Below are positions 16,730 to 48,697 of a stretch of 64,000 bases of DNA, in pieces. Every line of letters begins with the position of its first letter. Position 1 is the first letter of the stretch. Under the pieces are notes generated by a model that saw only the letters and a program-made list of their open reading frames with translations, was not told where the DNA came from and did not search any database. This DNA is from Verrucomicrobiia bacterium (GTDB taxonomy: Bacteria > Verrucomicrobiota > Verrucomicrobiia > Limisphaerales > JADLHS01): positions 41,953 to 105,952 of the forward strand of contig DASUGI010000100.1 in assembly GCA_036274115.1 (NCBI GenBank). The letters are read 5' to 3'. Both the position numbers and the translations under genes were made by a program.

Positions 16730-18849
16730 TTGGGCAGCCATTGAATGGCGTCGATGACGACATGGCCATCAGCGTTTTGATTGGAGACTTCCACGACCGC
16801 AGGTTTCTCCGTGTCGAAAGCAAACGTCCCCAGCGAGGCGAAAATGTTGTCAATTGGCGGGCGCAATTTTTCGTTCAACAGAATGACTTTCTCTCCGCGC
16901 TCATGATGAATAGTGATTGCGACGTTGGAGGCCCGGTTGTCATTGGGAGAGTACGCAAGTCGGACCTCGTAACGGCCCGCGCGCGGCAGGCGGGTTTCAA
17001 ATCGAGCGATTGACTTGCCCTTGGCGGTATTTCCGTCATGCCGATAGCTCGCGCCGACCCAGGGTTGGAGGGCGGTGCTTTCGACCCAGTTGCCGATGAG
17101 CCTGGCTTCCGCGTCATCCACGACGATGCCGTCGAGCTTGCGTGGATCGAGAATTGTCACTTCCGGCGGGGCGGGGTGCGTGGATTCGAGCACCTGTCCA
17201 TCCTGCAACAGACGTTCGCGCAGCTTTGAGTAGGGTACGTCCTGAACAGCAACGCGAGCATCAATGGCCATCGCCGCGGCGGTTGCGGCGGATTGACCCA
17301 GGATCATGAAGACCGGCTCCATGCGAATGGAGCCAAACGCAATGTGCGAGCTGGAAACGCACACTGGAACCAGCAGATTGTCCACCTGACCCCGCTTGGG
17401 CAGGAGCGCGCCGTAGGCGATTTGATAGGGGCCGCGAGTTGAGACCCCAATGTCCCCTTCGTTCTGGACATAACCTTCCGGAGTGATGTAGCGCTGGATG
17501 TTGTGGGAATCGATGGTGTAACTGCCCATGCCGACCGGTTCCGGGGTGGGACGTTTTTTGAGGAGTTCGTTTTCGGTCATCACGTACTGGCCAATCATCC
17601 GACGCGCTTCACGAATATAGAGTTGATGCGGCCAGTTCCCGTTGTCGCGAAACTCATCCCGGGCCAGTCCCCATTTCTGCATTTTCTCCCGAACCTCGGA
17701 CGGGACGCGCGGGTCATTGGCGATGAAATAAAGCCAGCCTTTCTGGTACTGCTCGTGTTCCTTGATGATCTCGCGGCGTCGTTCGTAGGAAGCTTCCGGG
17801 TAATCGTAGTTGTAACCGATGTTGTCGAAGCTCATCGGGCCGTGATTGTTGACGTCGGTCTTGCGATTCGGAACGGGATCAAACTTGGCAAAAGTTTCGC
17901 GCCAGCCGGCTTGGAAGATGCGCAGTAATAACTCGTATTGCGCGGGATCGTAGCCGTCGGGTTTGGGAAAGGGCACGCGATTCTCAGGATGGTCGGTCAA
18001 ACAGAGGCGGAAACAATACGCCTGAACCTTCCGATCACCCTGGCCATATTCGCCCGGATGATTGGTGCTGATTCGCGGCAGCACGCCGCTGCTCGGGTCG
18101 CCCGGAACGACGTACGGGCTGATCTTCTGTTTTACCGCGCCGAAGTGATGGCGATGATGCAAAACACCCGTCTGCACTCCGTTCCATTGCTCGCCATAGA
18201 CACTGTTCGCTTCGCGACCGACGTGGTAATCCACTTCTGCTGCCGCCATCAAGTCGCCTTCGTAGGTCGCGTCCAAATACATTTTCGCGCGATACGTTTT
18301 ACCGCTCAGCGTTGAGATGGAAACGATGCGCTGATTTTCCTTCTTCACGCCACTCGTACGGTCGAGCCATTCGTTTCGATAAACCGGAATCTTGTATTCG
18401 CGAATCCAATCCTCGAAGACGCGCTCGGCGACATGTGGTTCGAAGATCCACATCGTGCGGAGGTCCTTGTGGATGGCAGGTGTTCCCTGGCCTTGATTGC
18501 CGTAGTCCTCGCGCTGCTCCCATTTCCACGCCTCGGGTTGATCGTATTGTTTCCACACGCGATGATAGAACTCCCGGGCCAGCCCGCCGATGACCGCCTT
18601 GTTGCCGGTGTCAGTAAATCCCAGTCCGCCACTCGACAGGCCACCCAGATGCTGCTCCGGACAGACGATCACCACGGACTTGCCCATCCGCGCCGCCTGA
18701 ACGGCGGCAACGACGCCGCCCGACGTGCCGCCGTAGATGCAAATATCGCTTTCGGCTGTCGGCGCACCGGAGAGCGAGTTCGCCGCCAGGCATAGAAACA
18801 GCGAGAGGCAGCGGATCGATTTGAGAGTCATGTTTGAGAATTCTGTCAT
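16726..18849 (-). CDS. Secreted FAD-dependent oxidoreductase-family protein (paralog) with golvesin-C-like module
   Basis: IYGGTSGGVVAAVQAAR, shared blocks with the downstream paralog (SHIAFGS.RMEPVFM..GQSAATAA), and a C-terminal module (YRHDGN...YEVRLAY...GHVVIDAIQW). An alternative start at ATG 18831 gives a cleaner signal peptide. Confidence 0.8.
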   Translation of the reverse strand: MTEFSNMTLKSIRCLSLFLCLAANSLSGAPTAESDICIYGGTSGGVVAAVQAARMGKSVVIVCPEQHLGGLSSGGLGFTDTGNKAVIGGLAREFYHRVWKQYDQPEAWKWEQREDYGNQGQGTPAIHKDLRTMWIFEPHVAERVFEDWIREYKIPVYRNEWLDRTSGVKKENQRIVSISTLSGKTYRAKMYLDATYEGDLMAAAEVDYHVGREANSVYGEQWNGVQTGVLHHRHHFGAVKQKISPYVVPGDPSSGVLPRISTNHPGEYGQGDRKVQAYCFRLCLTDHPENRVPFPKPDGYDPAQYELLLRIFQAGWRETFAKFDPVPNRKTDVNNHGPMSFDNIGYNYDYPEASYERRREIIKEHEQYQKGWLYFIANDPRVPSEVREKMQKWGLARDEFRDNGNWPHQLYIREARRMIGQYVMTENELLKKRPTPEPVGMGSYTIDSHNIQRYITPEGYVQNEGDIGVSTRGPYQIAYGALLPKRGQVDNLLVPVCVSSSHIAFGSIRMEPVFMILGQSAATAAAMAIDARVAVQDVPYSKLRERLLQDGQVLESTHPAPPEVTILDPRKLDGIVVDDAEARLIGNWVESTALQPWVGASYRHDGNTAKGKSIARFETRLPRAGRYEVRLAYSPNDNRASNVAITIHHERGEKVILLNEKLRPPIDNIFASLGTFAFDTEKPAVVEVSNQNADGHVVIDAIQWLPK

Positions 18850-28782: not shown

Positions 28783-29556
28783 TCAATTCTGGCTACTCGG
28801 CGGCGCGACAATGACTTCAATCTCTTTCGCCCGTAGCGGGTCAATCAACTCACGTGGCGCCTGGCTGTCGGTAACAATGGTATGGACTTTGGAGAGATCG
28901 CAAAGTTGTGAAACCGAGCGGCGTCCAAACTTGGAAGAGTCCAGGCACATGATGACTTTCGCTGCCGCGCACATCATGGCGAGTTGGATGTCGATCAGCA
29001 ATCCGTGCGAGTTGGTCAATCCATCGAGCGTGATTCCCCCCGCGCTCATTACCGCCACGTCAGCATGGATTTTTGAAAATGCTTCCACCGCGAGCGGACC
29101 TACGAGCACGCCGAGGCGCGGGTAAATCACGCCGCCGCTCACGACGACTTCCACTTTACCGGCAGAGGAATAGAGATTTGCGACGGGCAGGGAATTGGTG
29201 ACGATTTGCGGTGACTTCTCTGCGAGATGTTTCGCGACGTGATAGGGCGTCGTGCCGGCGTCGATGATGACGCTTTGATTCGGACCGATGAGTTCAGCAC
29301 AGGCGCGGCCAATGGCCTCCTTGGCGTCGAGCTGATGGGTGTCGCGTGCGGAGAAAGTGAACTCGTCGGACTTCGGCGCGATAAGGCGCGCGCCGCCATG
29401 GGTGCGTTTCAAATTTCCGGCGGCTTCAAGCACGGTGAGGTCACGGCGGACGGTTGAAACGGACGAGCCGACGTGCTTGGCCAAGTCTTCAAGCGACGCA
29501 AATTCGACCTGCTGAAGGTAAGTTTCCAGCCGATGTTTCCGCTCTTCTGCCGTCAT
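28783..29556 (-). CDS. DeoR/GlpR-family transcriptional regulator
   Basis: N-terminal HTH (ASLEDLAKHVGSSVSTVRRDLTVLE) and a DeoR C-terminal sugar-phosphate sensor domain. Start ATG at 29556; the longer ORF extension runs through a REP element. Confidence 0.88.
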   Translation of the reverse strand: MTAEERKHRLETYLQQVEFASLEDLAKHVGSSVSTVRRDLTVLEAAGNLKRTHGGARLIAPKSDEFTFSARDTHQLDAKEAIGRACAELIGPNQSVIIDAGTTPYHVAKHLAEKSPQIVTNSLPVANLYSSAGKVEVVVSGGVIYPRLGVLVGPLAVEAFSKIHADVAVMSAGGITLDGLTNSHGLLIDIQLAMMCAAAKVIMCLDSSKFGRRSVSQLCDLSKVHTIVTDSQAPRELIDPLRAKEIEVIVAPPSSQN

Positions 29557-29562
29557 TCTGGC

Positions 29563-29587
29563 GATAGATTGATAGATATTGATAGAT
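29563..29587. promoter_or_regulatory. Three direct GATAGAT repeats, candidate DeoR operator
   Basis: GATAGAT at 29563, 29571 and 29581, immediately upstream of deoR and just before a TTGACT hexamer (29603-29608). Confidence 0.35.
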
Positions 29588-29645
29588 TTTGCAAGATATT
29601 TATTGACTTGGCCTGCTAATCGCTCAAAAATGCGCTCGTTATGGC

Positions 29646-29783
29646 TTGTAGCGCAGATTTTCAATCTGCTGTATCGCCGAATTGTATTCGGCGCACGCTT
29701 GGCATTTTCAGCGGCGCTGAAGTGTCTCGGGTCTGGCGGATTGGAAATCCGCGATACAGCAGATTGCAAATCTGCGCTACGCA
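29646..29783. repeat. REP-type composite inverted repeat in the deoR / pduL intergenic region
   Basis: TGTAGCGCAGATTTTCAATCTGCTGTATCGC (29648-29678) is nearly the reverse complement of GCGATACAGCAGATTGCAAATCTGCGCTACG (29751-29781). Inner small hairpins: CGCCGAAT..ATTCGGCG and GCGGATT-GGA-AATCCGC. Confidence 0.7.
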
Positions 29784-29811
29784 CTTTGCTGACAAACCGC
29801 GCTGAGTTTTT

Positions 29812-30489
29812 ATGGCTGTTGCTGCATCAGTTCCGCATCGGGCAGTTGTCGAACATCTCGTTCGGCAGGCGGTGTATTCGCGTCTTGGAAAGCCGCTGCC
29901 GCGCGCGGCGTCAGCGCCCAATCCACTCGTAGTGAACATCAGTGCGCGCCATTGCCATCTCACGCCGGAAGCGGTCGAGATCCTTTTTGGGAAGGGACAT
30001 CAACTCTCCGTTCACAAGTGGCTTTACCAAGAGGGGCAATTCGCAGCGAAGGAAACCGTGACGCTCATCGGCCCGCGCAGTCGCGTGATTTCAAATCTGC
30101 GTATCCTCGGTCCGTGCCGGAATCTGAATCAGGTGGAACTCGCTTACACCGACGCCATCGCGCTCGGCTTCGACATTCCATTGCGTGCCTCTGGCAACAT
30201 TGCCGGCACGCCCGGCGCGATGCTCATGGGCCCGGCGGGATTTTTTGAAATGAAGGACGGCGTGATTCGCGCCTTGCGTCACGTTCACATGCATCCGACC
30301 GACGCGGAGTTTTACGGCGTGAAGCCCGGCGACTGGATGAAGCTCAAGATCGGCGGCGATTGCGGCATCATTTTGGACAAGATGCTTTGCCGTGTGGACA
30401 AGAGTTTCAAACTCGAGGTGCACATTGATACGGACGAGGGGAATGCGTGCAACTTGCGGCCGGATACGCCGGCGGAACTTTTGAAGTGA
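29812..30489 (+). CDS. pduL: Phosphate acyltransferase PduL
   Basis: The two PduL repeats are recognisable (NISARHCHL...LRILGP and ALRHVHMHP...HIDTDEGNA). The N-terminal ~35 aa carry an amphipathic helix (AVVEHLVRQAVYSRL). Confidence 0.9.
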   Translation: MAVAASVPHRAVVEHLVRQAVYSRLGKPLPRAASAPNPLVVNISARHCHLTPEAVEILFGKGHQLSVHKWLYQEGQFAAKETVTLIGPRSRVISNLRILGPCRNLNQVELAYTDAIALGFDIPLRASGNIAGTPGAMLMGPAGFFEMKDGVIRALRHVHMHPTDAEFYGVKPGDWMKLKIGGDCGIILDKMLCRVDKSFKLEVHIDTDEGNACNLRPDTPAELLK

Positions 30490-30492
30490 TAT

Positions 30493-30600
30493 GAGTGACT
30501 GGTTACATGAGTTAAAAAGGTTAAATGCGTGGTGCGTTCGTCAATCCCGGTGCGCCCATGGACTCTCATTTAACGGTTTAACTCATTTAACCAATTTAAC
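30493..30600. repeat. Intercistronic hairpin repeat (GGTTAAATG family)
   Basis: GAGTTAAAAAGGTTAAATG faces CATTTAACGGTTTAACTC. Confidence 0.65.
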
Positions 30601-30636
30601 TTTCCGTACAATCAACACCCAAACAGGAGAAAACAA

Positions 30637-30924
30637 ATGAGTGAAGCATTAGGCATGATTGAAACCAAAGGCTACGTCGGCAGTGTGGAAGCCAGCGACG
30701 CCATGGTGAAAGCGGCCAACGTCACGTTGGTCAAAACCGTTCCCATCGGCGGCGGGCTGATCACCGTCCTCGCAAAAGGCGATGTCGGCAGCGTGAAAGC
30801 CGCCGTGGACGCTGGCTCAAAAGCCGCGGCCAAAGTCGGCGAACTCGTCAGCTCGCACATCATCGCGCGACCGCACGAAGATTTGTTGAAAGCCTTCGTG
30901 AACACCGGCGCCGCCGCAAAGTGA
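30637..30924 (+). CDS. BMC-H shell protein (Pfam00936-type hexamer)
   Basis: [26 protein letters not shown]...[13 protein letters not shown]...HIIARPH. AGGAG lies 8 nt upstream of the ATG. Confidence 0.93.
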
Positions 30925-30961
30925 AGCTCTGTCAACTATCAACCATCAACTATCAACTAAC

Positions 30962-31240
30962 ATGGCACAGCAAGCAGTTGGAATGATTGAATGCAAAGGT
31001 CTTTGCGCGCTGATGGAGGCGTGCGATGCCGCGCTCAAAGCCGCGAATGTCACGATGACCGGCTGGGAAAAAATCGGCAGCGGATATGTCACCGGATTTT
31101 TCCGGGGCGACGTTGCCGCCGTCAAAGCCGCGACCGACGCCGGTGCGGCCGCCGCCGCGCAAGTCGGCTCAGTCGTCGCCGTCCAGGTGATCCCGCGTCC
31201 GCATGATGATTTGGGGATTTTGGGCAAATGGCTGCAATGA
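30962..31240 (+). CDS. BMC-H shell protein
   Basis: [26 protein letters not shown]...[13 protein letters not shown]...VIPRPH. Confidence 0.92.
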
Positions 31241-31346
31241 GTTGGTTAAATGTGTGAATCGTTAAACAGGTTAAATGAGTTGAATGCCGCGCTAATCGTG
31301 GTTGGAACTTATTTAACCAATCGCTCGTTTAACTGATTTAACCAGC
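31241..31346. repeat. Intercistronic hairpin repeat (GGTTAAATG family)
   Basis: GTTGGTTAAATG...GTTAAACAGGTTAAATGAG faces CTTATTTAACC...GTTTAACTGATTTAACCAGC. Confidence 0.65.
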
Positions 31347-31349
31347 GCC

Positions 31350-32540
31350 GTGAAAATCCTGATCGCCAACATCGGCAGCACCTCGCTCAAGTGGCGCTTG
31401 TTCGATTTCTCGAACAACGCCGAGCGCCTTTTGCACAAAGGCGGCTTCGAGCGCGTGGCGGATTATCTGAAGGCGATTGAGGATTGTCTTGCGCAACTCA
31501 AAGACGCTGGCGCACTCGCGACCGAAAGCGAACTTGCCGCAGTTGGTTTCAAAACCGTGATTGCGAAAGGTGTCACCGGCTGCGTGCGACTGGATGAACG
31601 CGTGCTCGGCGCGATGGAGGCTTACAACGGCCTCGCGCCTGCGCACAATCCGCCCTACATCACCGGTATCCGCCTGTTTGGGAAACGCATACCGAGTGTG
31701 CCGTTGGTCGGATTGTTCGAGACGGCGTTCTATCAATTCGCGCCGGAAGCGATGATGCGCTACGCCGTGCCGCAAGCCTGGCACGACGTCGGCATCCGCC
31801 GTTGGGGTTTTCACGGTGCGAGCCACAAGTTCATCGCCGAACGCTCGGCGGAATTGCTCGGGCGTAACGATGTCGCCGAACGCGTGCGCAAACTATACGT
31901 GGACAGCGGCAAAGCTCCCGTGAACAAACCTGCGCTCCGAGTTATCTCCTGTCACCTCGGCGGCAGTTCGAGCATCACGGGAATTCGCGATGGCGTCGCG
32001 ATTGGCACGAGCATGGGCATGAGTCCGCAATCCGGTTTGCCGCAGAACAACCGCGTCGGCGATCTCGATGCGGAGGCGCTGCCTTACGCGGTGAAAACAC
32101 TTGGTATCACGATTGAAGAAGCGCAACGCCAGCTCACGAAGGAATCCGGCCTGAAAGGGCTGAGTGGGATTTCAAACGACATTCGCGATGTGACCACCGC
32201 GGCGGAGCAGGGGAATGCGAATGCCAGGCTCGCGCTAGATGTTTATGTCGCCAGCGCGCGGCATTGGATTGGCAGCTACTTTTTCGAAATGGGCGGCGCG
32301 GACGCGATTGTGTTCACAGCGGGAATCGGCGAAAACCGTACTGAAATTCGCGCGGCAGTTTGTGCGAACCTCGAAGGGCTCGGCATCGAATTGGATTGCG
32401 CACTCAATGCCAACACGCGCGCGACCGAAGCCGTCATCAGCAAGCCAGGTTCTCGCGTGAAACTTCTTGTGATTCCGACGAATGAAGAGCTCGTTGTTGC
32501 GCGTGAAACGAAGCGTTTGCTCGAAGCACAAAAGAATTAA
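31350..32540 (+). CDS. ackA: Acetate/propionate-family kinase
   Basis: KILIANIGSTSLKWRLF, RRWGFHGASH, ISCHLGGSSS and FTAGIGEN. GTG start. Confidence 0.92.
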   Translation: MKILIANIGSTSLKWRLFDFSNNAERLLHKGGFERVADYLKAIEDCLAQLKDAGALATESELAAVGFKTVIAKGVTGCVRLDERVLGAMEAYNGLAPAHNPPYITGIRLFGKRIPSVPLVGLFETAFYQFAPEAMMRYAVPQAWHDVGIRRWGFHGASHKFIAERSAELLGRNDVAERVRKLYVDSGKAPVNKPALRVISCHLGGSSSITGIRDGVAIGTSMGMSPQSGLPQNNRVGDLDAEALPYAVKTLGITIEEAQRQLTKESGLKGLSGISNDIRDVTTAAEQGNANARLALDVYVASARHWIGSYFFEMGGADAIVFTAGIGENRTEIRAAVCANLEGLGIELDCALNANTRATEAVISKPGSRVKLLVIPTNEELVVARETKRLLEAQKN

Positions 32541-32689
32541 CCACGGATGAACACTGATAAACACAGATTGGGAAAAAGTCTTACGCGAATTTCGCTAATT
32601 GCCGCGAATTCAGGTTCAATTCGTGTTAATTCGCGCAATTCGCGTCAAACGGTTTTTATCTGTGTTAATTCGTATCCATCCGTGGTTAA
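32537..32689. repeat. Intercistronic nested hairpin repeat (CCACGGATG family)
   Basis: TTAACCACGGATGAACACTGATAAACACAGAT faces ATCTGTGTTAATTCGTATCCATCCGTGGTTAA. Inner arms are ACGCGAATT...AATTCGCGT. Confidence 0.7.
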
Positions 32690-32727
32690 AAATTTCCCTC
32701 AACTCTCAACCATCAACTAACTGAATT

Positions 32728-33009
32728 ATGCCTCAAGCCATAGGAATGATCGAAACGCGCGGACTCGTCGCCCTCGTCGAGGGGACGGACGCGATGCTCA
32801 AGGCCGCCAACGTGGAACTCGTCGGCCCGATGACCCAGGTCGGTAACGCGCTCGTGACCGCGTGCGTGGTCGGCGACGTCGCCGCCGTCAAAGCCGCCAC
32901 CGACGCCGGCGCGCAGGCCATTAAAGCCATCAAAGGCGAAGTGGTCAGCGTGCACGTCATCGCCCGCCCGCACAGCGACGTGGAAGCGGTGTTGCCGAAG
33001 AAGAAGTAA
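32728..33009 (+). CDS. BMC-H shell protein
   Basis: [26 protein letters not shown]...[13 protein letters not shown]...HVIARPH. Confidence 0.92.
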
Positions 33010-33011
33010 CT

Positions 33012-33107
33012 GGTTGAATCGGTGATTGGTTAAACAGGTGACTCGTTAAATGAGTTACCGCTGCGCGGAGGGCCAATCACCATTTAACAAATCACCAATC
33101 ACCAACC
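33012..33107. repeat. Intercistronic hairpin repeat (GGTGATTGG / CCAATCACC family)
   Basis: GGTTGAATCGGTGATTGGTTAAAC faces CCATTTAACAAATCACCAATCACCAACC. Confidence 0.6.
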
Positions 33108-33108
33108 T

Positions 33109-33423
33109 ATGTTCCTCGCCAAAGTCGAAGGTTCAGTGGTCGCGACCAAGAAAGACCCGTCCATGAGTGGGCGCAAGATGCTGTTGCTTCGCCCGCAACT
33201 CGTGGATGAAAAAGATCCCACGAAGTTCCGCCCCGGCGCCAATACCATTGTGGCCGTGGACACGCTCGGCGCGGGCATCGGCGAAATGGTGATGTTCTGC
33301 CAGGGCAGCAGCGCCCGCCTCGCCCCCGGTATGAAAGACGCGCCAGTGGACGCCGTCGTCATCGGCATCGTGGACAGCGTGGACGTGCTCGGAAAACAGA
33401 TCTTTAGCGGGAAAGCAATGTGA
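33109..33423 (+). CDS. BMC-P vertex protein (EutN/CcmL, Pfam03319-type), copy 1
   Basis: MFLAKVEGSVVATKKD...LLLRP...VAVDTLGAGIGEMV...VDAVVIGIVD. Confidence 0.9.
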   Translation: MFLAKVEGSVVATKKDPSMSGRKMLLLRPQLVDEKDPTKFRPGANTIVAVDTLGAGIGEMVMFCQGSSARLAPGMKDAPVDAVVIGIVDSVDVLGKQIFSGKAM

Positions 33424-33431
33424 ACTGGTCG

Positions 33432-33842
33432 TCAGTCAATTCCGAGCCGCCCACGCTCTCGTTCTTCGAAACGAATATCGAGGACGCGCGGACGATTCAT
33501 CAGCAGTGCTTCGGCACTTGCCCGGCCAGTTGGTGTTATCCCGACGATCTTAATGCCGTCCCATCGGAAATGATCGCGCCAGTTGTTCCGCCGAGGATTG
33601 AAAAGAGGCGCGTTCGTCCCGGTTTCGGGATCCAATGCGGTTTGGCGCGCGCCCTTGGACAGCGAACCGGTGACGCAGGCCAGGGCAAGATTTTCCAACT
33701 CCGTCGGACCCCCCGCCGATTGCGGAACAATGTGATCAATGTGGAAGGTTGCTTCCTGGGCGAATTGGGAAAGCAGGCAATACTCGCAACGATTGTGGGC
33801 GCGTTGGATGACGCCCTGTCGCAGATGGTCGGGAACGGTCAT
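33432..33842 (-). CDS. HNH endonuclease-family protein
   Basis: 136 aa: CEYC...HIDHIVPQSAGGPTELENLALAC. It lies antisense to the BMC operon. Confidence 0.85.
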   Translation of the reverse strand: MTVPDHLRQGVIQRAHNRCEYCLLSQFAQEATFHIDHIVPQSAGGPTELENLALACVTGSLSKGARQTALDPETGTNAPLFNPRRNNWRDHFRWDGIKIVGITPTGRASAEALLMNRPRVLDIRFEERERGRLGID

Positions 33843-33846
33843 CCGT

Positions 33847-34071
33847 TCACGCAGCTTGCTTGCGGAGGCGCTCGGAACGCAGACGGAGAAGCGAAAGCAG
33901 ATCGTTCAAGTCTGCCAAACCCTGGGCTTCCCGGCGCTCCTCATCGGTTAGCGGATGGCCGGCATCCTGTTTGTCCAACAATAGATGCAGCCGGCGTTCG
34001 ACCGCTTTTGGCAAGCGCAGCCGATCCTGATCATCGGGCCACTCGATTTCAAACTGAACTTTCTGCGACAT
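33847..34071 (-). CDS. Small hypothetical protein upstream of the HNH gene (74 aa)
   Basis: The ATG at 34071 (MSQKVQFEIEW...) ends 4 nt before the HNH start. Helical, charged C-terminus. The long 228-aa ORF extension is antisense to the aldehyde dehydrogenase gene and was rejected. Confidence 0.5.
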   Translation of the reverse strand: MSQKVQFEIEWPDDQDRLRLPKAVERRLHLLLDKQDAGHPLTDEERREAQGLADLNDLLSLLRLRSERLRKQAA

Positions 34072-34144
34072 ACGCGTCGTCTGTTTCTGGCTCGACCATA
34101 GCAGAATCCGCCGGCGGTGTCCAAGTGCAGAATCCCAAAGAAAT

Positions 34145-35650
34145 ATGAGCGCAGTGAACGAAACTTTGATCCGGGACGTGGTGTCCGAGGTGCTCGGGCG
34201 TCTTGGGGGCAATTCGACCACGACCGTCACGCAATCCGCACCCGCACCTGCCGCGGCGAAGAGCGATTCTTGCGGTTGTAGCACCAAAAAAGCTACGTCT
34301 GCTCCGGCCTTGCGCGGCAAGTTTGGTGTGTTCGCCACAGCAGATGAGGCGTGTGCGGCGGCGCAGGAAGCGTTCTTGCAGTTGCAGCAAAAGGGCATGG
34401 CGGCGCGGCGCAAGATTGAAGAAATCGTCAAGACCATGGCGGAGAGGAACGCTGAGCCGTGGGGCAAAATCGAATTTGAAGAGACGAAGATTGGCAGTCT
34501 GCCGCACAAGGTCGCCAAGCTCGGTCTCATCAAGCTCGTTCCCGGCGTGGATTGGCTGCGACCAGACGCGATGAGCGGCGATCACGGCATCACGCTGGAG
34601 GAATACACGCCGTTTGGTGTGGTTGGCGCGATCACGCCAAGCACGCATTCCATTCCCACGTTGAGCGGCAACATCGTCAACATTTGCGCAGCAGGAAATG
34701 CCGTGGTGTTCAATGCGCATCCGAGCGCGGCGAAGTGCGCGGCGGTGGCGGTGCGCGCTTACAACGAGGCGATCTATCGCGAGACCGGTATTGAGAATAT
34801 CGCGTGTATCATTGAAAAGCCGACGCTCGATTCTTTCAACGCACTTTGCAAAAACGAAAACACGAAGCTGCTGCTCGTCACCGGCGGACCGATGGTGGTG
34901 AAGGCGGCGATGCAGACCGGCAAGCGCGCCATCTGCGCCGGCCCAGGCAATCCGCCCGTTTTCGTGGACGATACGTGCTGCACCACACGCGCGGCCAAGG
35001 CGATTATTTCCGGCGCCGCGTTCGACAACAATCTGCTGTGCATCGGTGAAAAACAGGTGTTCGTGCTCGATCATGTGGCGGACAAGCTGATGCAGCGCAT
35101 GTCGGAGAACGGCGCGGTGAAGTTGAATGCGGCGCAACTGGAGAAACTTACGAAGGCAGCATTTACGTTCAAGGAAGGGCAGGGCGGTGGTTGCGCTCAT
35201 GCCAGCGTGAACAAGGAACTGATTGGCAAGGACGCGAGCGTGCTGGCCCAGGCGGCGGGAATCAACGTGCCGGCAGATGCGCAGCTTTTGTTTGCCGAGA
35301 CGGATGTGAATCACGCCTTCGTGCAGGAAGAGCAGATGATGCCGATGTTACCGATTGTGCGCGTGAAGAGCGTCGAGGAAGGCATCGCGTTGTCGTTGCA
35401 GTCCGAGCATAACTACAAGCACACGGCGGTCATTCACTCGCACGATGTCGAGAACATCACCGCGATGGCGCGCTCTCTCGATACCACGCTGTTTGTAAAA
35501 AATGGGCCGTCACCGGCTGGCCTTGGTCTGGGCGGTGAAGGTTATCTGAGTTTTTCCATCGCTACGCCGACAGGTGAAGGCATTACGAATCCGCGCACGT
35601 TTACCCGCGTGCGGCGCTGTGTGATGGTGGATAATCTCCGCATCTATTAA
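34145..35650 (+). CDS. CoA-acylating aldehyde dehydrogenase (PduP/EutE-like)
   Basis: N-terminal amphipathic helix (ETLIRDVVSEVLGRL) and a low-complexity linker, then an ALDH fold with the catalytic-Cys context NNLLCIGEKQ. Confidence 0.9.
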   Translation: MSAVNETLIRDVVSEVLGRLGGNSTTTVTQSAPAPAAAKSDSCGCSTKKATSAPALRGKFGVFATADEACAAAQEAFLQLQQKGMAARRKIEEIVKTMAERNAEPWGKIEFEETKIGSLPHKVAKLGLIKLVPGVDWLRPDAMSGDHGITLEEYTPFGVVGAITPSTHSIPTLSGNIVNICAAGNAVVFNAHPSAAKCAAVAVRAYNEAIYRETGIENIACIIEKPTLDSFNALCKNENTKLLLVTGGPMVVKAAMQTGKRAICAGPGNPPVFVDDTCCTTRAAKAIISGAAFDNNLLCIGEKQVFVLDHVADKLMQRMSENGAVKLNAAQLEKLTKAAFTFKEGQGGGCAHASVNKELIGKDASVLAQAAGINVPADAQLLFAETDVNHAFVQEEQMMPMLPIVRVKSVEEGIALSLQSEHNYKHTAVIHSHDVENITAMARSLDTTLFVKNGPSPAGLGLGGEGYLSFSIATPTGEGITNPRTFTRVRRCVMVDNLRIY

Positions 35651-35759
35651 GTTCGAAACCCGAAATCCGAATGCCGAAAGAAATCCGAAATCCGAAATCC
35701 GATGGACGACAAGCCTCCGAGGGAGCGGAGCGTTTGGGTTCGGAATTTTGGGTTTGGGA
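35651..35759. repeat. CCGAAAT heptamer array followed by a complementary TTCGG/TTTGGG segment
   Basis: CGAAACC CGAAATC CGAATGC CGAAAGA AATCCGA AATCCGA AATCCGA (35654-35702), then GTTTGGGTTCGGAATTTTGGGTTTGGG. Confidence 0.7.
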
Positions 35760-35826
35760 AGACGGGCGTGGGGAGAATGATGGTGTACTGCGAGATGAAC
35801 CACCCGGCAAGACGCCGCCGAATCTC

Positions 35827-36156
35827 ATGGAACGAGTTGCGGTGTTTGGAGAGCGGATTGTCAGATTCGCGAAGAAGATTCCAAGAGGTGTGAATCACCC
35901 TGAGAATAATCGGCTGATAGATCAATTGGTCGGCGCGGGCACAAGTATCGGAGCAAACTATTGCGAAGCCGACGACGCGGTTTCTGGGAAGGATTTCAAA
36001 TGTAAGATCGGGATCAGTCGCAAAGAGTCCAAGGAAACCATGTTTTTTCTCAGAATGATTGCAGCGTCTGAAGAATCTTTGGCGGACGAAGCGCGCGAAC
36101 TTTGGCGGGAAGCCAAAGAGCTAAACCTGATCTTTGGTTCTATGTGGAGAAAGTAA
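35827..36156 (+). CDS. Four-helix-bundle protein (23S rRNA intervening-sequence / Avd-like family)
   Basis: LIDQLVGAGTSIGANYCEA...KIGISRKESKETMFFLRMI is the family signature. The start is uncertain: ATG 35827, while the ORF opens at 35671 inside the repeat. Confidence 0.8.
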   Translation: MERVAVFGERIVRFAKKIPRGVNHPENNRLIDQLVGAGTSIGANYCEADDAVSGKDFKCKIGISRKESKETMFFLRMIAASEESLADEARELWREAKELNLIFGSMWRK

Positions 36157-36166
36157 AAGCCTATGA

Positions 36167-36309
36167 CCGAAATCCGAAGTCCGAAAGATGGCCGAAAACC
36201 GGAATTCGAATCAAATGCGCGGTTTGCTTGCGCGGATTTTGATTCAGCTTCGGGCTTCGGGTTTCGGATTTCTTTCGGATCTCGGCCATCGGATTTCGGA
36301 TTTTGATTC
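36167..36309. repeat. Long hairpin built from CCGAAAT / ATTTCGG heptamers
   Basis: CCGAAATCCGAAGTCCGAAAG...GAATTCGAATCAAA faces TTTGATTCAGCTTCGGGCTTCGGGTTTCGGATTTCTTTCGG...GGATTTCGG. Confidence 0.7.
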
Positions 36310-36310
36310 T

Positions 36311-36589
36311 ATGCTCCTCGCACGTGTCGAAGGCAACATCGTGGCGACTCGGAAACATCCGAGCCTCGATGGCTGGCGGCTCGTGATTTGTCAGCCCATC
36401 GGCGTGGATGGCCAGGCTGAAGGCGCGCCGCAGATTGCCATTGATGCGCATGGCGCGGGCATGCATCAGCAGGTGGTGATTTCGTCGGACGGTGCCGCGG
36501 CGCGCAAAGCGGTGGGTGACGAGAAGAGTCCGGTGCGCTGGCTGGTGATTGGTGTGGTGGATGAACATGAACCGGGAGTGAGAGTATGA
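36311..36589 (+). CDS. BMC-P vertex protein (EutN/CcmL), copy 2
   Basis: MLLARVEGNIVATRKHPSLDGWRLVICQP...IAIDAHGAGMHQQVV...WLVIGVVD. Start ATG at 36311. Confidence 0.88.
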   Translation: MLLARVEGNIVATRKHPSLDGWRLVICQPIGVDGQAEGAPQIAIDAHGAGMHQQVVISSDGAAARKAVGDEKSPVRWLVIGVVDEHEPGVRV

Positions 36590-36709
36590 AAAATCCGAAA
36601 TCCGAAATCCGAAATCCGAAGACCGAAAAATCCAGTGACGCTCGAATCCAACTTTCGGATGTCGGGCTTCGGACTTCTTTCGGATTTCGGGTTTCGATCT
36701 TCGGATTTC
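36590..36709. repeat. Long hairpin built from CCGAAAT / ATTTCGG heptamers
   Basis: AAAATCCGAAATCCGAAATCCGAAATCCGAAGACCG faces CGGGCTTCGGACTTCTTTCGGATTTCGGGTTTCGATCTTCGGATTT. Confidence 0.7.
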
Positions 36710-36716
36710 AAATCAA

Positions 36717-37022
36717 ATGAAACTCGGCACAGTCATTGGTCGGGTGACGTTGAGCAAGACGGTGAAGTCGCTCGAAGGCGGGCGGTTTCTCGTGGTGAGT
36801 CCGTTCAGCCGCGAGCAGTTTGCGGCTGGCCTTGATGCGCCGACTGCGATGGGCAAAGACCCGAGCCTGGTGGTTTACGACGCGATTGGTGGCGGAATTG
36901 GACACGTCATCGGTTACGTGGAAGGTCGCGAGGCCGCACAGCCGTTTGCCGAGCCGACGCCGGTTGACGCGATTAACACCGCGCTCGTGGACGAAATGTT
37001 TTACAGCCCATGGAAGGGCTGA
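36717..37022 (+). CDS. BMC-P vertex protein (EutN/CcmL), copy 3
   Basis: MKLGTVIGRVTLSKTVKSLEGGRFLVVSP...VVYDAIGGGIGHVIGYVEG. Confidence 0.85.
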   Translation: MKLGTVIGRVTLSKTVKSLEGGRFLVVSPFSREQFAAGLDAPTAMGKDPSLVVYDAIGGGIGHVIGYVEGREAAQPFAEPTPVDAINTALVDEMFYSPWKG

Positions 37023-37034
37023 CGATTTTAAGTC

Positions 37035-38078
37035 ATGAAGAATGTCATCAGTTTAAAAGATTTGGAGCAGATGGTCCGCAACGGGCAGAGCTTGAACAAC
37101 CTGCCTGCAGACGCGATTCTCACGCCGTCGGCGCGGGAGTTCTTACAAGACCGCGAGATGAGTTCCGCGCTGAGAAACGGCGCGTCGGAAGCAAGGACAG
37201 TTGCGGGGCCACCGGAAAGGCCGCTCTCGTCGAAAAGTTCGCGCGCCGAGTTGGAAGCGTTTTTCAATTCGGCTTACGCGCACAGTTTGAAGGAGCAGCT
37301 TTGTGATGTGGGCCGGCGGTTGTGGCAGCGCGCTTACGTGGATGGCAACGGAGGGAACATTGCGATTCGCGTTGGTGAAGACATTGCCATTTGCACGCCC
37401 ACGTTGGTGAGCAAGGGTTTCATGAAGCCCGAGGACATGTGCCTCGTGGACTTTGAGGGCAATCAACTCGCTGGCACGAAGAAGCGCACCAGTGAAATCC
37501 TCATGCATTTGCAGATCATGAAGAAGCAGCCGAAGGCGGTGGCGACGTGCCATTGTCATCCGCCATACAGCACGGGCTTTGCAGTGGCTGGGCTGGTGCC
37601 ACCGACGTGCATGATTCCGGAGTATGAGGTGTTCGCGAGCGTGGCGATTGCGCCGTATCGCACGCCGGGGACGCCGGAGATGGGCAAGCTCGTTTCCGAC
37701 CTGGTGGACAGGCACAACACGATTTTAATGGCGAACCACGGCGTCGTTTCGTGGAGTCACAACAGCGTTGAAGATGCCTACTTCAAGATGGAAATCCTGG
37801 AGGCGTATTGCCGCACCGTGCTCGTGACGGCGCAGCTCGGCGTCGCGCCAAAGACGATGTCGCCGAACCAACTTCAGGATTTGCTGAAGATCAAGCAAAG
37901 CCTTGGCATCCCCGATCCGCGCCACGGTTTGAAGGAATGCGAGCTTTGCGACAATGACGAGTGGCGTCCCGGGGTGACTTGCGCTGTGCCGGCAAGAGAG
38001 ACATCCGTGGGATATGATGCGGAAGCTGAAAAGGCGGTGCAGGCGATTACGGAACAGATCCTGGCACGAATGAAATGA
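37035..38078 (+). CDS. Class II aldolase/adducin-family protein (fuculose-/rhamnulose-phosphate aldolase-like) with N- and C-terminal extensions
   Basis: Core motifs GNGGNIAIR, SEILMHLQI, HCHPPY and MANHGVVSW. A ~75-aa N-terminal and a ~50-aa C-terminal extension flank the core. Ends with the amphipathic helix AEKAVQAITEQILARMK. Confidence 0.85.
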   Translation: MKNVISLKDLEQMVRNGQSLNNLPADAILTPSAREFLQDREMSSALRNGASEARTVAGPPERPLSSKSSRAELEAFFNSAYAHSLKEQLCDVGRRLWQRAYVDGNGGNIAIRVGEDIAICTPTLVSKGFMKPEDMCLVDFEGNQLAGTKKRTSEILMHLQIMKKQPKAVATCHCHPPYSTGFAVAGLVPPTCMIPEYEVFASVAIAPYRTPGTPEMGKLVSDLVDRHNTILMANHGVVSWSHNSVEDAYFKMEILEAYCRTVLVTAQLGVAPKTMSPNQLQDLLKIKQSLGIPDPRHGLKECELCDNDEWRPGVTCAVPARETSVGYDAEAEKAVQAITEQILARMK

Positions 38079-38214
38079 AAAATCCGAAGATCGAAATCCG
38101 AAATCCGGAGGAAGTCCGAAGCCCGAAATCCGTAGTTGGTTCTCGTGGGCTGGCGGTACATTCGGGCTTCGGAATTCGGGATTCTTTCGAATTTCGAAAT
38201 TCGGATTTCGAATT
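38079..38214. repeat. Long hairpin built from CCGAAAT / ATTTCGG heptamers
   Basis: AAAATCCGAAGATCGAAATCCGAAATCCGG...GCCCGAAATCCG faces CATTCGGGCTTCGGAATTCGGGATTCTTTCGAATTTCGAAATTCGGATTTCG. Confidence 0.7.
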
Positions 38215-38217
38215 TTA

Positions 38218-39498
38218 ATGAAATCCCTCGACCAAAAACTCGCGGAGATCAAAGCCAATCGCTCCTCGCGTGCATTCATCATCGCGGACGCGAAGGATGC
38301 GGACATGGCGTTTGGCGTGCGCGCGCCAGGACCTCGTGGCTATTTGGCGAAGCGTGGTTCCAGACCGGCGCAGTTTTCACCGGAGGTTTGGTCGCGTGGG
38401 GAGTATGGCTATCGCAATCTGCCGGAGTTTCTCGACATCATTCGCGAGGTCACGCACCAGGGGCTGGTGGACATCATGCTGATGTCCGCTTACGTGAACG
38501 AACAACTCACGATCAAAGAAGGTTTGTTCAAGAACTCGCGCGTCACGCCGGCGGCACGGGCAAATGACACGACCGACGTCTGGGCGGTGCGACACGGCTG
38601 TTACATGGGCGATGCGTCGCAGCCGTTTCGTAGCGCGAGCATTGATCATATTCAGTGCGGTGAAGTGGCGTGCGACCGTGATAGTAGTGGCAATTTCCCG
38701 GGAGCAAACCTCGGGCTCTACTCGATCACCTACGTCAACGATCTGGAGCAGGATCGTGAGGCGCTCTTGTGGTACAAGCAATTTCGTGAGGAAGCGGAGC
38801 AGAAGCAGTTTCGTCATTTCCTCGAAGTGTTCGACCCGAATGTGGACAGCGGAATTCCGCCGGAAAATTTGGGCGAGTTTATCAACGACAACATCGTTCG
38901 CACCCTCGCCGGCGTGCCGGAATCGGGTCGGCCGATTTTTCTGAAAATTGTCTATCATGGGCCGAAGGCGATGGAGGAGTTGGCGCAGTACGACCCGAAT
39001 CTGGTGGTGGGCATTCTCGGTGGCAGCGCGGGGACGACGTACGATGCGTTCAGGCTGATTCACGATGCGCAGAAGTACGGGGCGCGGGTGGCGTTGTTTG
39101 GTCGCAAGATCAATCATGCCGAGCATCAGTTGGCGTTTATCGAGATGCTGCGGTTGATTACTGACGGGAGGATCAATCCCGAGGAAGCGGTGCACGCCTA
39201 CCATGGCGTGTTGCAGGGGAAAGGCATTAAACCGCATCGCGCCCTGGAAGAGGACTTGAAGCTGACGGACCAGGCAATGAGTTACGATAGCAGTCAGTCG
39301 CGACGGGCGGCGGTGGAGGTGCGGAATAATCCGCTGGCGACAGTGCCGGCGGGTGCGCCGATCGTTAGCCGCGATCTCACGAGCGCAGCCACGGGTGATT
39401 GGCCGAAGCTGCCGGACGGCGCGCCGAATTTTGCAGGAATGACTTCAGATCAGCGGTTGGCGTACGACCAATGGCGATTCAAGCGCCGGTTTGGTTGA
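38218..39498 (+). CDS. Conserved-looking protein of unknown function; possibly a class-I-aldolase-like TIM barrel (unverified)
   Basis: 426 aa with alternating beta/alpha-like pattern. FLKIVY and [13 protein letters not shown] are reminiscent of LacD/DeoC-type aldolases. The ~100-aa C-terminal tail is low-complexity. This is hand recognition only. Confidence 0.4.
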
Positions 39499-47824: not shown

Positions 47825-47843
47825 ACAGCACTCGCTGCGTGAG

Positions 47844-47982
47844 CAATGGCCAATGGCCAATGGCCAATGGCTGATGGCAAATGGCAAATGGCCAATGGCT
47901 GATGGCAAATCAGTTTCCGTTGCGGAGGTTCTGGTCTTTCATGGCATGGTCGTTTGCCATCTGGCATTTGCCATTTGCCATC
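47844..47982. repeat. AATGGCN heptamer array (9.5 units) folding onto a reverse-oriented TTTGCCA segment
   Basis: CAATGGC x4, TGATGGC, AAATGGC x2, CAATGGC, TGATGGC (47844-47910), a loop, then GTTTGCCATCTGGCATTTGCCATTTGCCAT (47952-47981). It sits between two convergent stop codons. Confidence 0.75.
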
Positions 47983-48563: not shown

Positions 48564-48697
48564 AATATCCGATGGCAAATGGCAAAGGCTTCGCGATGGC
48601 AGATAGCTTGATGGCACATGGCAAATCAATTCACAATTCGCACGATCTGCCATTTGCCATTTGTCATTTGTCATTGGCTATTTCCCATCAGGTTTCC
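48564..48697. repeat. ATGGCAA / TTGCCAT heptamer-based hairpin upstream of the four-helix-bundle gene
   Basis: GCCATGGCAAATATCCGATGGCAAATGGCAAAG...GATGGCACATGGCAAAT faces CTGCCATTTGCCATTTGTCATTTGTCATTGGC. Confidence 0.7.

Follow-up and report, generated by a model that had tools for sequence, protein, structure and literature searches.

Which kind of bacterial microcompartment (BMC) is encoded at positions 28783-39498 of a 64,000-nucleotide stretch of Verrucomicrobiia DNA (contig DASUGI010000100.1; this whole 64-kb stretch is referred to here as the window), and what does the last gene of its operon, which encodes a 426-amino-acid (426-aa) protein, contribute to it? An earlier note, made from the letters alone, had read the locus as an organelle of the Planctomycetes/Verrucomicrobia (PVM) type for fucose and rhamnose degradation and had left the distal protein as an unknown. 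On the basis of gene content, taxon and synteny, we assign the locus with high confidence to the PVM type of BMC operon, in a Verrucomicrobiae genome. Judging from its predicted fold, the distal protein is most likely a cargo enzyme, a Schiff-base sugar-phosphate aldolase or lyase for which we infer catalysis, substrate and encapsulation alike. The best joint explanation, to which we give a probability of roughly 0.85, is a PVM operon that runs the published core pathway and has the 426-aa protein as an extra cargo aldolase or lyase. While the locus itself is of an ordinary, already known kind, represented by 285 PVM loci in the 2021 catalogue (Sutter et al. 2021, PMC8217296), its distal gene is less ordinary; a conserved architecture of candidate operator and promoter is a further point of interest.

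All thirteen genes that the earlier note had named are present, at or near the positions it gave, and match the expected Pfam or NCBIfam families. The regulator, shell and enzyme genes, together with the distal gene, are as follows.

28783-29556, minus strand: DeoR-family regulator (PvmA-like), divergent from the operon (PF00455 DeoRC, 6.7e-43; PF08220 HTH_DeoR, 1.1e-14)
29812-30489, plus strand: PduL-type phosphotransacylase (PvmB-like) with a conserved N-terminal helix (PF06130, 1.1e-69; NCBIfam PRK15070)
30637-30924, plus strand: BMC-H shell protein 1 (PF00936, 3.3e-26)
30962-31240, plus strand: BMC-H shell protein 2, with the pore motif KIGSGY (PF00936, 1e-26)
31350-32540, plus strand: acetate/propionate-family kinase (PvmG-like; PF00871, 1.2e-92; TIGR00016, 304 bits)
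32728-33009, plus strand: BMC-H shell protein 3 (PF00936, 2.6e-22)
33109-33423, plus strand: BMC-P vertex protein 1, EutN/CcmL (PF03319, 7.9e-29)
34145-35650, plus strand: CoA-acylating aldehyde dehydrogenase (PvmJ-like; NCBIfam PRK15398, 588 bits against a cutoff of 403; PF00171)
36311-36589, plus strand: BMC-P vertex protein 2 (PF03319, 1.6e-25, from residue 42 of a longer open reading frame)
36717-37022, plus strand: BMC-P vertex protein 3 (PF03319, 5.4e-15)
37035-38078, plus strand: class II aldolase, the PvmN-like signature enzyme (PF00596, 2.3e-41)
38218-39498, plus strand: 426-aa protein, predicted class I aldolase-like TIM barrel (residues 1-355), variable linker and conserved C-terminal helix (401-426), as judged from AlphaFold2 (AF2), Foldseek and synteny

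PVM loci are defined by a class II aldolase as signature enzyme, a DeoR regulator, acetate kinase, a triplet of BMC-P genes and hosts among the Planctomycetes and Verrucomicrobia (Axen et al. 2014, PMC4207490; Sutter et al. 2021, PMC8217296). The window carries three PF00936 BMC-H genes and a triplet of distinct PF03319 BMC-P genes for the shell, a PF00596 class II aldolase with HxH and NHG motifs and a conserved C-terminal helix, the metabolosome core of PF00171 acylating aldehyde dehydrogenase (ALDH) and PF06130 PduL-type phosphotransacylase, and a DeoR-family regulator and acetate kinase whose positions are conserved across related loci. The shell and PduL profiles that the earlier note had proposed as a check (PF00936, PF03319 and PF06130) all found their matches, PF00936 at 1e-22 to 1e-26. 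As to the host, a 'Verrucomicrobiae bacterium' metagenome-assembled genome (MAG) encodes a hypothetical protein with 100% identity to the 426-aa protein. The DeoR gene, with its DeoRC match on the minus strand, is indeed divergent from the plus-strand operon; its start is MTAEERKH at 29556, and the 333-aa open reading frame (ORF) ending at 29784 over-extends into a repeat. Conservation profiles reveal that PduL, ALDH, the aldolase and the 426-aa protein each have a conserved terminal helix set off by an unconserved linker; in the ALDH the conserved helix is N-terminal and the variable linker spans residues 23-57. Other BMC types were rejected: BMC-T and diol dehydratase, whose absence had already been remarked on, were detected neither in the operon nor in the window, and the same holds for PduS, glycyl-radical enzyme, EutBC and RuBisCO. 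Ldh-family genes were likewise not found in either. We also rejected the upstream Gfo/Idh/MocA oxidoreductase and the downstream citrate synthase and hybrid kinase as operon members, these being common to the closest relatives only.

Two collections of related loci were compared for synteny. Set 1, for which the 426-aa protein served as anchor, comprises 80 loci from species-representative genomes, mostly with Verrucomicrobia labels plus one Planctomycetales locus and a few MAG records labelled otherwise, for example Bifidobacterium or Haliangiales; set 2, anchored on the ALDH, comprises 80 metagenome contigs (79-97% identical), of which 36 are usable PVM loci. Several related loci stem from Limisphaerales MAGs. 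The order DeoR (minus strand), PduL, BMC-H, BMC-H, acetate kinase (AckA), BMC-H, BMC-P, ALDH, BMC-P, BMC-P, aldolase is essentially invariant in both sets, with median intergenic gaps of 0-90 bp; it is present in about 55 species genomes and 36 metagenome contigs, and the DeoR regulator occupies the same position in about 45 related loci. Since the gene order of the window recurs in more than 90 verrucomicrobial loci, we regard the locus as a PVM-type microcompartment operon, and the earlier assignment is borne out by gene content, taxon and synteny together. The closest relative of the window operon, locus L087, shares 72-89% nucleotide identity over the aligned genes.

The PVM locus of Planctopirus (Planctomyces) limnophila is pvmABDEGHIJKLMNO (Erbilgin et al. 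2014, as described in PMC4207490, PMC8217296 and PMC11958385). In common with it, the window has DeoR, PF06130, BMC-H, acetate kinase, the BMC-P triplet, PF00171 and PF00596, has no BMC-T in the main locus and falls within the same phylum range, Planctomycetes/Verrucomicrobia. It differs in its three BMC-H genes, versus two for PVM in the 2021 catalogue (PMC8217296), and in the lack of a PvmO (Ldh-family) gene. A separate PvmL (PF02441-related) between two BMC-P genes is missing as well: the gap between BMC-P genes 2 and 3 holds a hairpin only, and what the window retains is the roughly 40-aa N-terminal module of PvmL, fused to the aldolase, residues 4-41 of which match the N-terminus of the PvmL-like protein of L081 (BLASTP, 5e-05). 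Verrucomicrobial loci generally lack a separate PvmL. Additional in the window are the distal gene for a putative class I aldolase-like protein and four recent intergenic insertions. The earlier note had listed the insertions, the missing dehydrogenase and the 426-aa gene as peculiarities of this locus; the list is accurate, but none of them is unique to the window, each recurring in relatives. As a PVM operon the locus adds only one more example of a microcompartment whose presence is used as a marker that Verrucomicrobia and Planctomycetes turn over fucose and rhamnose (fucoidan, algal and plant polysaccharide). In the verrucomicrobial genus Limisphaera, a cultured member makes BMCs on rhamnose (PMC13608581).

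What chemistry would such an operon carry out? The substrates can be taken, by analogy, from the published PVM model (PMC4207490, PMC6620236, PMC8857213), with which the lactaldehyde chemistry proposed in the earlier note coincides. The class II aldolase would cleave L-fuculose-1-phosphate or L-rhamnulose-1-phosphate to dihydroxyacetone phosphate (DHAP) and L-lactaldehyde; the ALDH would then convert lactaldehyde to lactyl-CoA and NADH, PduL would turn lactyl-CoA into lactyl-phosphate with release of CoA, and the acetate-kinase homologue would yield lactate and ATP. The shell would be built from three BMC-H hexamers and the BMC-P triplet, while the enzyme that recycles NAD+ would come from elsewhere in the genome, unless recycling proceeds in another way.

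For the recycling step the Ldh-family gene PvmO has been proposed in PVM loci. The lack of an alcohol dehydrogenase, pointed out in the earlier note, is real: a tblastn search with the Ldh of locus L009, which gives 29 matches among related loci, finds a PvmO-type Ldh nowhere in the window. In set 1, 25 of the 55 operon-linked loci carry Ldh between the aldolase gene and that of the 426-aa protein. Its absence from the other 30 comparable loci and from all 36 usable, ALDH-anchored set 2 loci marks it as variable within the PVM type. A different arrangement is seen in set 2, where PduS and BMC-T lie beyond the DeoR gene in 12 of the 15 loci with enough upstream sequence (L091, L092, L101, L103, L134, L136, L147, L149, L150, L154, L157 and L166; about 3.4-5.8 kb in each); this module is found in none of the 55 set 1 loci and is absent from the window too. 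PduS and BMC-T form an NADH dehydrogenase/shell module that in PVM organisms is usually placed within satellite loci (PMC11626177), and the genome from which the window stems may therefore hold such a module elsewhere. In the close verrucomicrobial PVM main loci, compared with L001-L079, PduS and BMC-T never occur together with the distal Ldh/426-aa module; in Phycisphaerae loci, by contrast, PduS, BMC-T and the 426-aa gene stand side by side. The two modules may be functional alternatives, or may merely be placed differently, as satellites.

Is the 426-aa gene a chance neighbour of this operon? Among the 63 set 1 loci with enough upstream sequence, the PVM aldolase or Ldh immediately precedes it in 55, at median gaps of about 30-90 bp. 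The unknown distal protein of the earlier note is thus present and without a Pfam family, as had been said, but it is no local oddity. The remaining copies comprise one in a Phycisphaerae-type BMC locus and seven that stand alone but carry the C-terminal tail. The 426-aa gene is an accessory module of PVM operons, the conserved distal gene of one architecture. It is of interest as a highly conserved, unannotated gene that is tied to the operon in many species.

Family searches returned no name for the protein. No Pfam or NCBIfam model covers it: Pfam gave nothing at E up to 0.01, with PF01791 not reached, and NCBIfam only a 16.5-bit match to ADH synthase against a cutoff of 241. A phmmer search against PDB sequences found no match. 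A word-index search returned at least 8000 matches, the best 120 of which are 79-100% identical, all unnamed or 'hypothetical' and none with a Pfam domain; an exhaustive search for the family gave 1086 cluster representatives. Two short homologues have been named 'DhnA family fructose-bisphosphate aldolase class Ia' by JGI, while the rhizobial ones are 'hypothetical protein' in RefSeq. In the PVM literature covered, which did not include Erbilgin et al. 2014, we found no mention of the family.

Structure prediction is more informative. Along the protein, a conserved core (residues 1-355) is followed by an unconserved stretch (358-400) and a conserved end (401-426; PNFxxMTxxQRLAYDxxRFxRxFG). 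The AF2 model made from a 50-sequence alignment has a predicted local distance difference test score (pLDDT) of 81.7 and a predicted template modelling score (pTM) of 0.76, and consists of eight beta/alpha units, a disordered low-pLDDT linker (354-391) and a terminal helix (410-425) with pLDDT of about 85-90; a shallower alignment gave a pLDDT of 68. In a Foldseek search against the PDB, the best 50 matches all belong to the class I aldolase superfamily (probability 1.00, E 1e-8 to 2e-6, template modelling score (TM) up to 0.77). They include Methanocaldococcus jannaschii ADH synthase, Escherichia coli LsrF, LacD tagatose-bisphosphate aldolases and the archaeal class IA fructose-bisphosphate (FBP) aldolase (TM up to 0.77), as well as a Slackia FBP aldolase and a sulfohexulose-1-phosphate aldolase. 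A profile of the family matches LsrF at E 2e-6 and ADH synthase at 1e-3, and an hhalign comparison with E. coli LsrF covers strands 5-8 at 84% probability. The fold is therewith predicted to be a class I aldolase-like TIM barrel.

In 50 sequences spanning Verrucomicrobia, Phycisphaerae and Alphaproteobacteria, the residues D24, K26, D27, D29, D85, R114, N116, Y168, E203, K243, GG268-269 and GR295-296 are invariant. GG268-269 and GR295-296 align with the GG and GR motifs of LsrF, which we take to be the phosphate-binding loops of class I aldolases, and K243 (in FLKIVY), on the predicted strand 242-244 (strand 6), comes within one residue of the Schiff-base lysine region of LsrF in both alignments. 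The predicted protein shares with LsrF, MJ0400 ADH synthase, LacD, archaeal FBP aldolase IA and the sulfo-sugar phosphate aldolases (4p2v, 2qjg, 3mhf, 1ok6, 8tnf) the eight-stranded TIM barrel, the GG and GR loops after strands 7 and 8 and an acidic residue ending strand 1, and K243 would be the counterpart of their strand-6 lysine. It differs from the solved members in large inserts at 30-65 and 116-160, in the C-terminal linker and helix and in having no curated family model; the forms from BMC phyla additionally have two conserved cysteines, C147 and C152.

Taken together, model and context suggest that the 426-aa protein would be a further cargo of the organelle: a sugar-phosphate aldolase or lyase of the Schiff-base (class I) kind, belonging to the DeoC/LacD/DhnA superfamily but very divergent. 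Its flexible linker would tie the barrel to the conserved C-terminal helix, which may act as an encapsulation peptide, and the enzyme would supply a second aldehyde-generating activity on a ketose phosphate.

Several observations weigh against the joint explanation. On the side of the core pathway, no fucose or rhamnose isomerase, kinase or glycosidase genes were found in the 64-kb window, and the NAD+ recycling step has no candidate gene there. On the side of the 426-aa protein, identity to any solved aldolase is 9-15% only, and neither the profile search nor hhalign gives a sequence-level match for the N-terminal half. The position of the lysine carries a one-residue uncertainty: two alignments put K243 one residue either side of the lysine in the LsrF motif IIKTYY, a site that reads IIATYY in the mutant structure 4p2v. 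The strand-6 lysine is missing in four relatives that are 32-39% identical (P0159, P0197 and P0227, which are tailed, and the tail-less P0172); these distant relatives may be non-catalytic paralogues. In set 2 the gene stands next to the operon in only 2 of the 36 PVM loci, with no conserved downstream replacement, and it is therefore dispensable for the PVM organelle as such. Finally, the tail is basic and better conserved than typical encapsulation peptides, and the hydrophobic moment of the terminal helix is not above background, in a test that did not discriminate.

These last points would also suit a cytosolic sugar-phosphate enzyme that is encoded beside the operon, or co-transcribed with it, and that uses its tail for oligomerisation or catalysis. 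C-terminal tails participate in catalysis in some class I aldolases, the tail here is unusually well conserved as well as basic, the amphipathicity test did not separate it from background, and the seven stand-alone verrucomicrobial copies have no BMC genes in the 5.4-10 kb of upstream sequence that their contigs provide. We nevertheless consider such a mere neighbour unlikely. Its copies would have to lie immediately 3' of the PVM aldolase or Ldh in 55 of 63 cases, and the protein has the same build as the ALDH and the aldolase, with a domain, an unconserved linker of about 40 residues and a conserved terminal helix. Moreover, the alphaproteobacterial forms, in whose examined loci no BMC genes were found, are tail-less, whereas the stand-alone verrucomicrobial copies are tailed, as expected of satellite cargo genes.

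In Alphaproteobacteria the genes of the tail-less forms (328-343 aa) run into the start of a PfkB sugar kinase gene, to which they are translationally coupled within rhizobial sugar-transport operons; in Shinella, the tail-less form and its PfkB gene are part of an operon with a sugar ABC transporter, an FGGY kinase and a ROK regulator. No BMC genes were found near the tail-less forms in either of the two alphaproteobacterial loci examined. One verrucomicrobial stand-alone copy is located directly 3' of a gene of the ketohexokinase family (PF25270/PfkB); a literature search for a prokaryotic ketohexokinase/aldolase pair found nothing relevant. Kinase/aldolase pairs are known as LacC/LacD and YihV/YihT, and the genomic pairing of the 426-aa family with PfkB-family kinases resembles that of LacD and YihT.

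Could the 426-aa protein instead be the signature enzyme in its own right? The question is raised by three Phycisphaerae loci (L080, L081 and L082), which have the order DeoR, phosphotransacylase, BMC-H, BMC-H, AckA, BMC-H, BMC-P, ALDH, BMC-P, PvmL-like, BMC-P, 426-aa family, followed in L081 and L082 by PduS and BMC-T, and in which no PF00596 aldolase was found within 10 kb. Their PvmL-like proteins (211-221 aa; L080 8969-9604, L081 9055-9720, L082 8991-9632) share the N-terminal module of about 40 aa with the window aldolase, and their combination with the 426-aa family resembles the isomerase and aldolase signature pair of sugar phosphate utilisation (SPU) microcompartments, a type whose definition is a PF01791 aldolase together with a PF02502 isomerase (PMC8217296).

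In a PVM/SPU hybrid of this kind, the DeoC/LacD-superfamily protein would be a signature enzyme of its own, and another sugar phosphate would be handled also or mainly, feeding a different aldehyde into the same core. Besides the definition of the SPU type itself and the Phycisphaerae pairing of the family with a PvmL-like protein without a class II aldolase, two of the three PvmL-like proteins match PF02502 (RpiB/LacAB) below threshold, the best at 24.4 bits against a cutoff of 24.7, and the family adjoins sugar kinases outside the BMC phyla. The window has in common with SPU microcompartments the BMC-P triplet, an aldehyde dehydrogenase core and a cargo that would belong to the DeoC/LacD TIM-barrel superfamily, and the Phycisphaerae relatives have in addition the RpiB-like partner. 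On the other hand, the 426-aa protein falls below any PF01791 threshold, its closest folds are those of the DhnA/LacD/LsrF branch, and an RpiB-like gene is missing from the window, which does encode the class II aldolase, acetate kinase and DeoR regulator of PVM loci. As the canonical class II aldolase is intact and conserved in the window, the nearest folds are DHAP-forming aldolases and LsrF with no deoxyribose-phosphate aldolase among the best 50, and 34 of the 36 close PVM loci do without a 426-aa gene at the locus, we judge the hybrid improbable.

Returning to the extra cargo aldolase or lyase, we put forward tentatively, at somewhat less than even odds, a more specific form of this reading: the 426-aa family would constitute an uncharacterised branch of class I aldolases, with the tailed form an encapsulated second PVM signature enzyme and the sole aldolase candidate in the Phycisphaerae 'PVM' loci. 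On this reading PVM organelles would process a further sugar phosphate, and the PVM model with class II aldolase only would be incomplete for a large share of Verrucomicrobia and Planctomycetes. An encapsulated Schiff-base aldolase would widen the substrate range and enzyme inventory of these organelles and would explain the Phycisphaerae loci without a class II aldolase; it would also name a sugar-catabolic gene of rhizobial megaplasmids.

The second feature of interest in the locus is found between the DeoR and PduL genes, where three elements can be recognised.

29563-29599, unstranded: tandem repeat of 10-bp phased direct repeats, TGATAGATnT three times and then TGCAAGATAT, candidate DeoR operator
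29603-29631, plus strand: promoter-like site with TTGACT (29603), a 17-nt spacer and AAAAAT (29626), noted for the conservation of its TTGAC box
29640-29785, unstranded: palindromic element of about 150 bp inserted in the 5' leader (inverted repeat I5, arms 29648-29692 and 29736-29780)

Of 45 related DeoR-PduL spacers, 33 show the arrangement of three phased direct repeats of 10 bp (consensus TGGAAGATTT TGGAAGATTT TGCAAGATAT) beside a TTGAC box, which is at least 90% conserved across the 33 aligned spacers. Scans for promoters and terminators gave site counts no higher than in shuffled sequence. Going by this sequence conservation, the phased repeats are probably a DeoR operator that overlaps the operon promoter: the divergent regulator would bind the repeats beside the promoter. 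The conserved architecture thus offers a concrete operator candidate for the rhamnose-inducible PvmA system, already a genetic tool in Planctomycetes. The spacer itself measures about 85 bp in relatives versus 255 bp in the window, and the leader (29632-29815), palindrome included, folds at -84.6 kcal/mol. The palindrome arms contain GCAGATTGCAAATCTGCGCTAC; it is the sole copy in the window and in all retrieved loci, and is the source of the over-extended DeoR ORF.

Does the operon still function, given what has been inserted into it? The inserted genes and repeat hairpins are the following.

33432-33842, minus strand: inserted HNH endonuclease gene, antisense to the operon (PF01844, 5.9e-10)
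33847-34071, minus strand: inserted 74-aa ORF paired with the HNH gene, no family match
35671-36156, plus strand: inserted four-helix-bundle/23S rRNA IVS-family gene with a probable start near 35827 (PF05635, 2.1e-09; TIGR02436, 6.9e-14)
36150-36315, unstranded: (GAAATCC)n/(GGATTTC)n heptamer-array hairpin, folding at -67.2 kcal/mol
36585-36716, unstranded: heptamer-array hairpin between BMC-P genes 2 and 3, folding at -55.3 kcal/mol
38075-38220, unstranded: heptamer-array hairpin at the junction that holds an Ldh-like gene in many relatives, folding at -62.2 kcal/mol

Compared with L087, the junction between BMC-P gene 1 and the ALDH gene has grown from about 17 bp to 721 bp (HNH gene and 74-aa ORF), that between the ALDH and BMC-P gene 2 from about 10 bp to 660 bp (four-helix-bundle gene flanked by heptamer arrays), that between BMC-P genes 2 and 3 from an overlap to 127 bp (hairpin) and that between the aldolase and the 426-aa gene from about 30 bp to 139 bp (hairpin). 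By this comparison, recent insertion between genes accounts for the HNH gene, the four-helix-bundle gene and the repeat hairpins, all of them missing from L087. The foreign genes and repeats seen in the earlier note are therefore there, with the refinement that they are intergenic, absent in L087 and of a type that recurs in related operons.

These four junctions, longer by 127-721 bp, the strong hairpin in the leader and the missing NAD+ recycling gene might be taken to mean that the operon is decaying, with the antisense HNH gene, the four-helix-bundle gene and the hairpins disrupting transcription and the loss of Ldh leaving a non-functional remnant. This we regard as very improbable, since none of the shell and enzyme ORFs is truncated and all share 60-100% identity with their orthologues, similar insertions occur in many otherwise intact loci, and Ldh-less operons make up more than half of the comparable loci. 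With all operon ORFs intact, the insertions read as tolerated selfish elements and not as decay.

Similar elements are found at the same and at other junctions of related operons. The junction between the ALDH and BMC-P gene 2 carries an insert of at least 330 bp in 11 of 132 related loci; 10 of the 11 hold a 121-aa ORF, and the three of these that were scanned all belong to the 23S rRNA IVS/bAvd-like four-helix-bundle family. Small genes at other junctions of PVM operons encode PIN/DUF3368, PD-(D/E)XK (PDDEXK_3), Bro-N and cupin proteins. Examples of junction inserts are L006 7780-8145, L016 9473-9970, L014 9579-9965, L006 5382-6227 and L079 5536-5958. The antisense pair of HNH gene and 74-aa ORF (33432-34071 in the window) is also present at the junction between BMC-P gene 1 and the ALDH gene of L008 (5366-6014), with 65% and 52% identity, and closer relatives are without it; given this low identity and patchy presence, the pair reflects either an old insertion that was lost repeatedly or a site-specific re-insertion.

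The repeat unit of the heptamer hairpins in the window is (GAAATCC)n with its complement, and their folding energies range from -55 to -67 kcal/mol. Near-matches to the heptamer dimer are concentrated at the operon, 17 of the 27 in the window falling within 35.6-38.2 kb, with about 3 expected by chance in the whole window. Tandem heptamer arrays forming long intergenic hairpins are located at 35640-38220, and also at 55839-55875, 47840-47879 and 48645-48678; CCAATGG and GCCATTT are other heptamers in the arrays of the window. Similar arrays occur at other junctions of related operons and, since their positions differ among these, the arrays seem mobile or fast-evolving. We take them to be reminiscent of the STRR heptamer repeats of cyanobacteria. 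An Rfam search of 28-42 kb gave only two sub-threshold matches to plant miRNA precursors, on hairpins.

The rest of the 64-kb window is occupied by housekeeping genes, encoding a sigma factor, ThiF, ALAD, CarA, two-component systems, citrate synthase and succinyl-CoA ligase, and further an amidase, a PduO-type adenosyltransferase and QueA, as well as MraW (RsmH), a penicillin-binding protein and a Mur ligase for cell division and the cell wall. The PduO-type cobalamin adenosyltransferase gene (PF01923, 47228-47824) adjoins the amidase gene about 8 kb downstream of the operon, and nothing ties it to the BMC locus. On the minus strand at 14012-18849, two large proteins are encoded side by side, each with an FAD-dependent oxidoreductase domain (PF12831) and a Golvesin C-terminal domain; one also has a Calx-beta domain.

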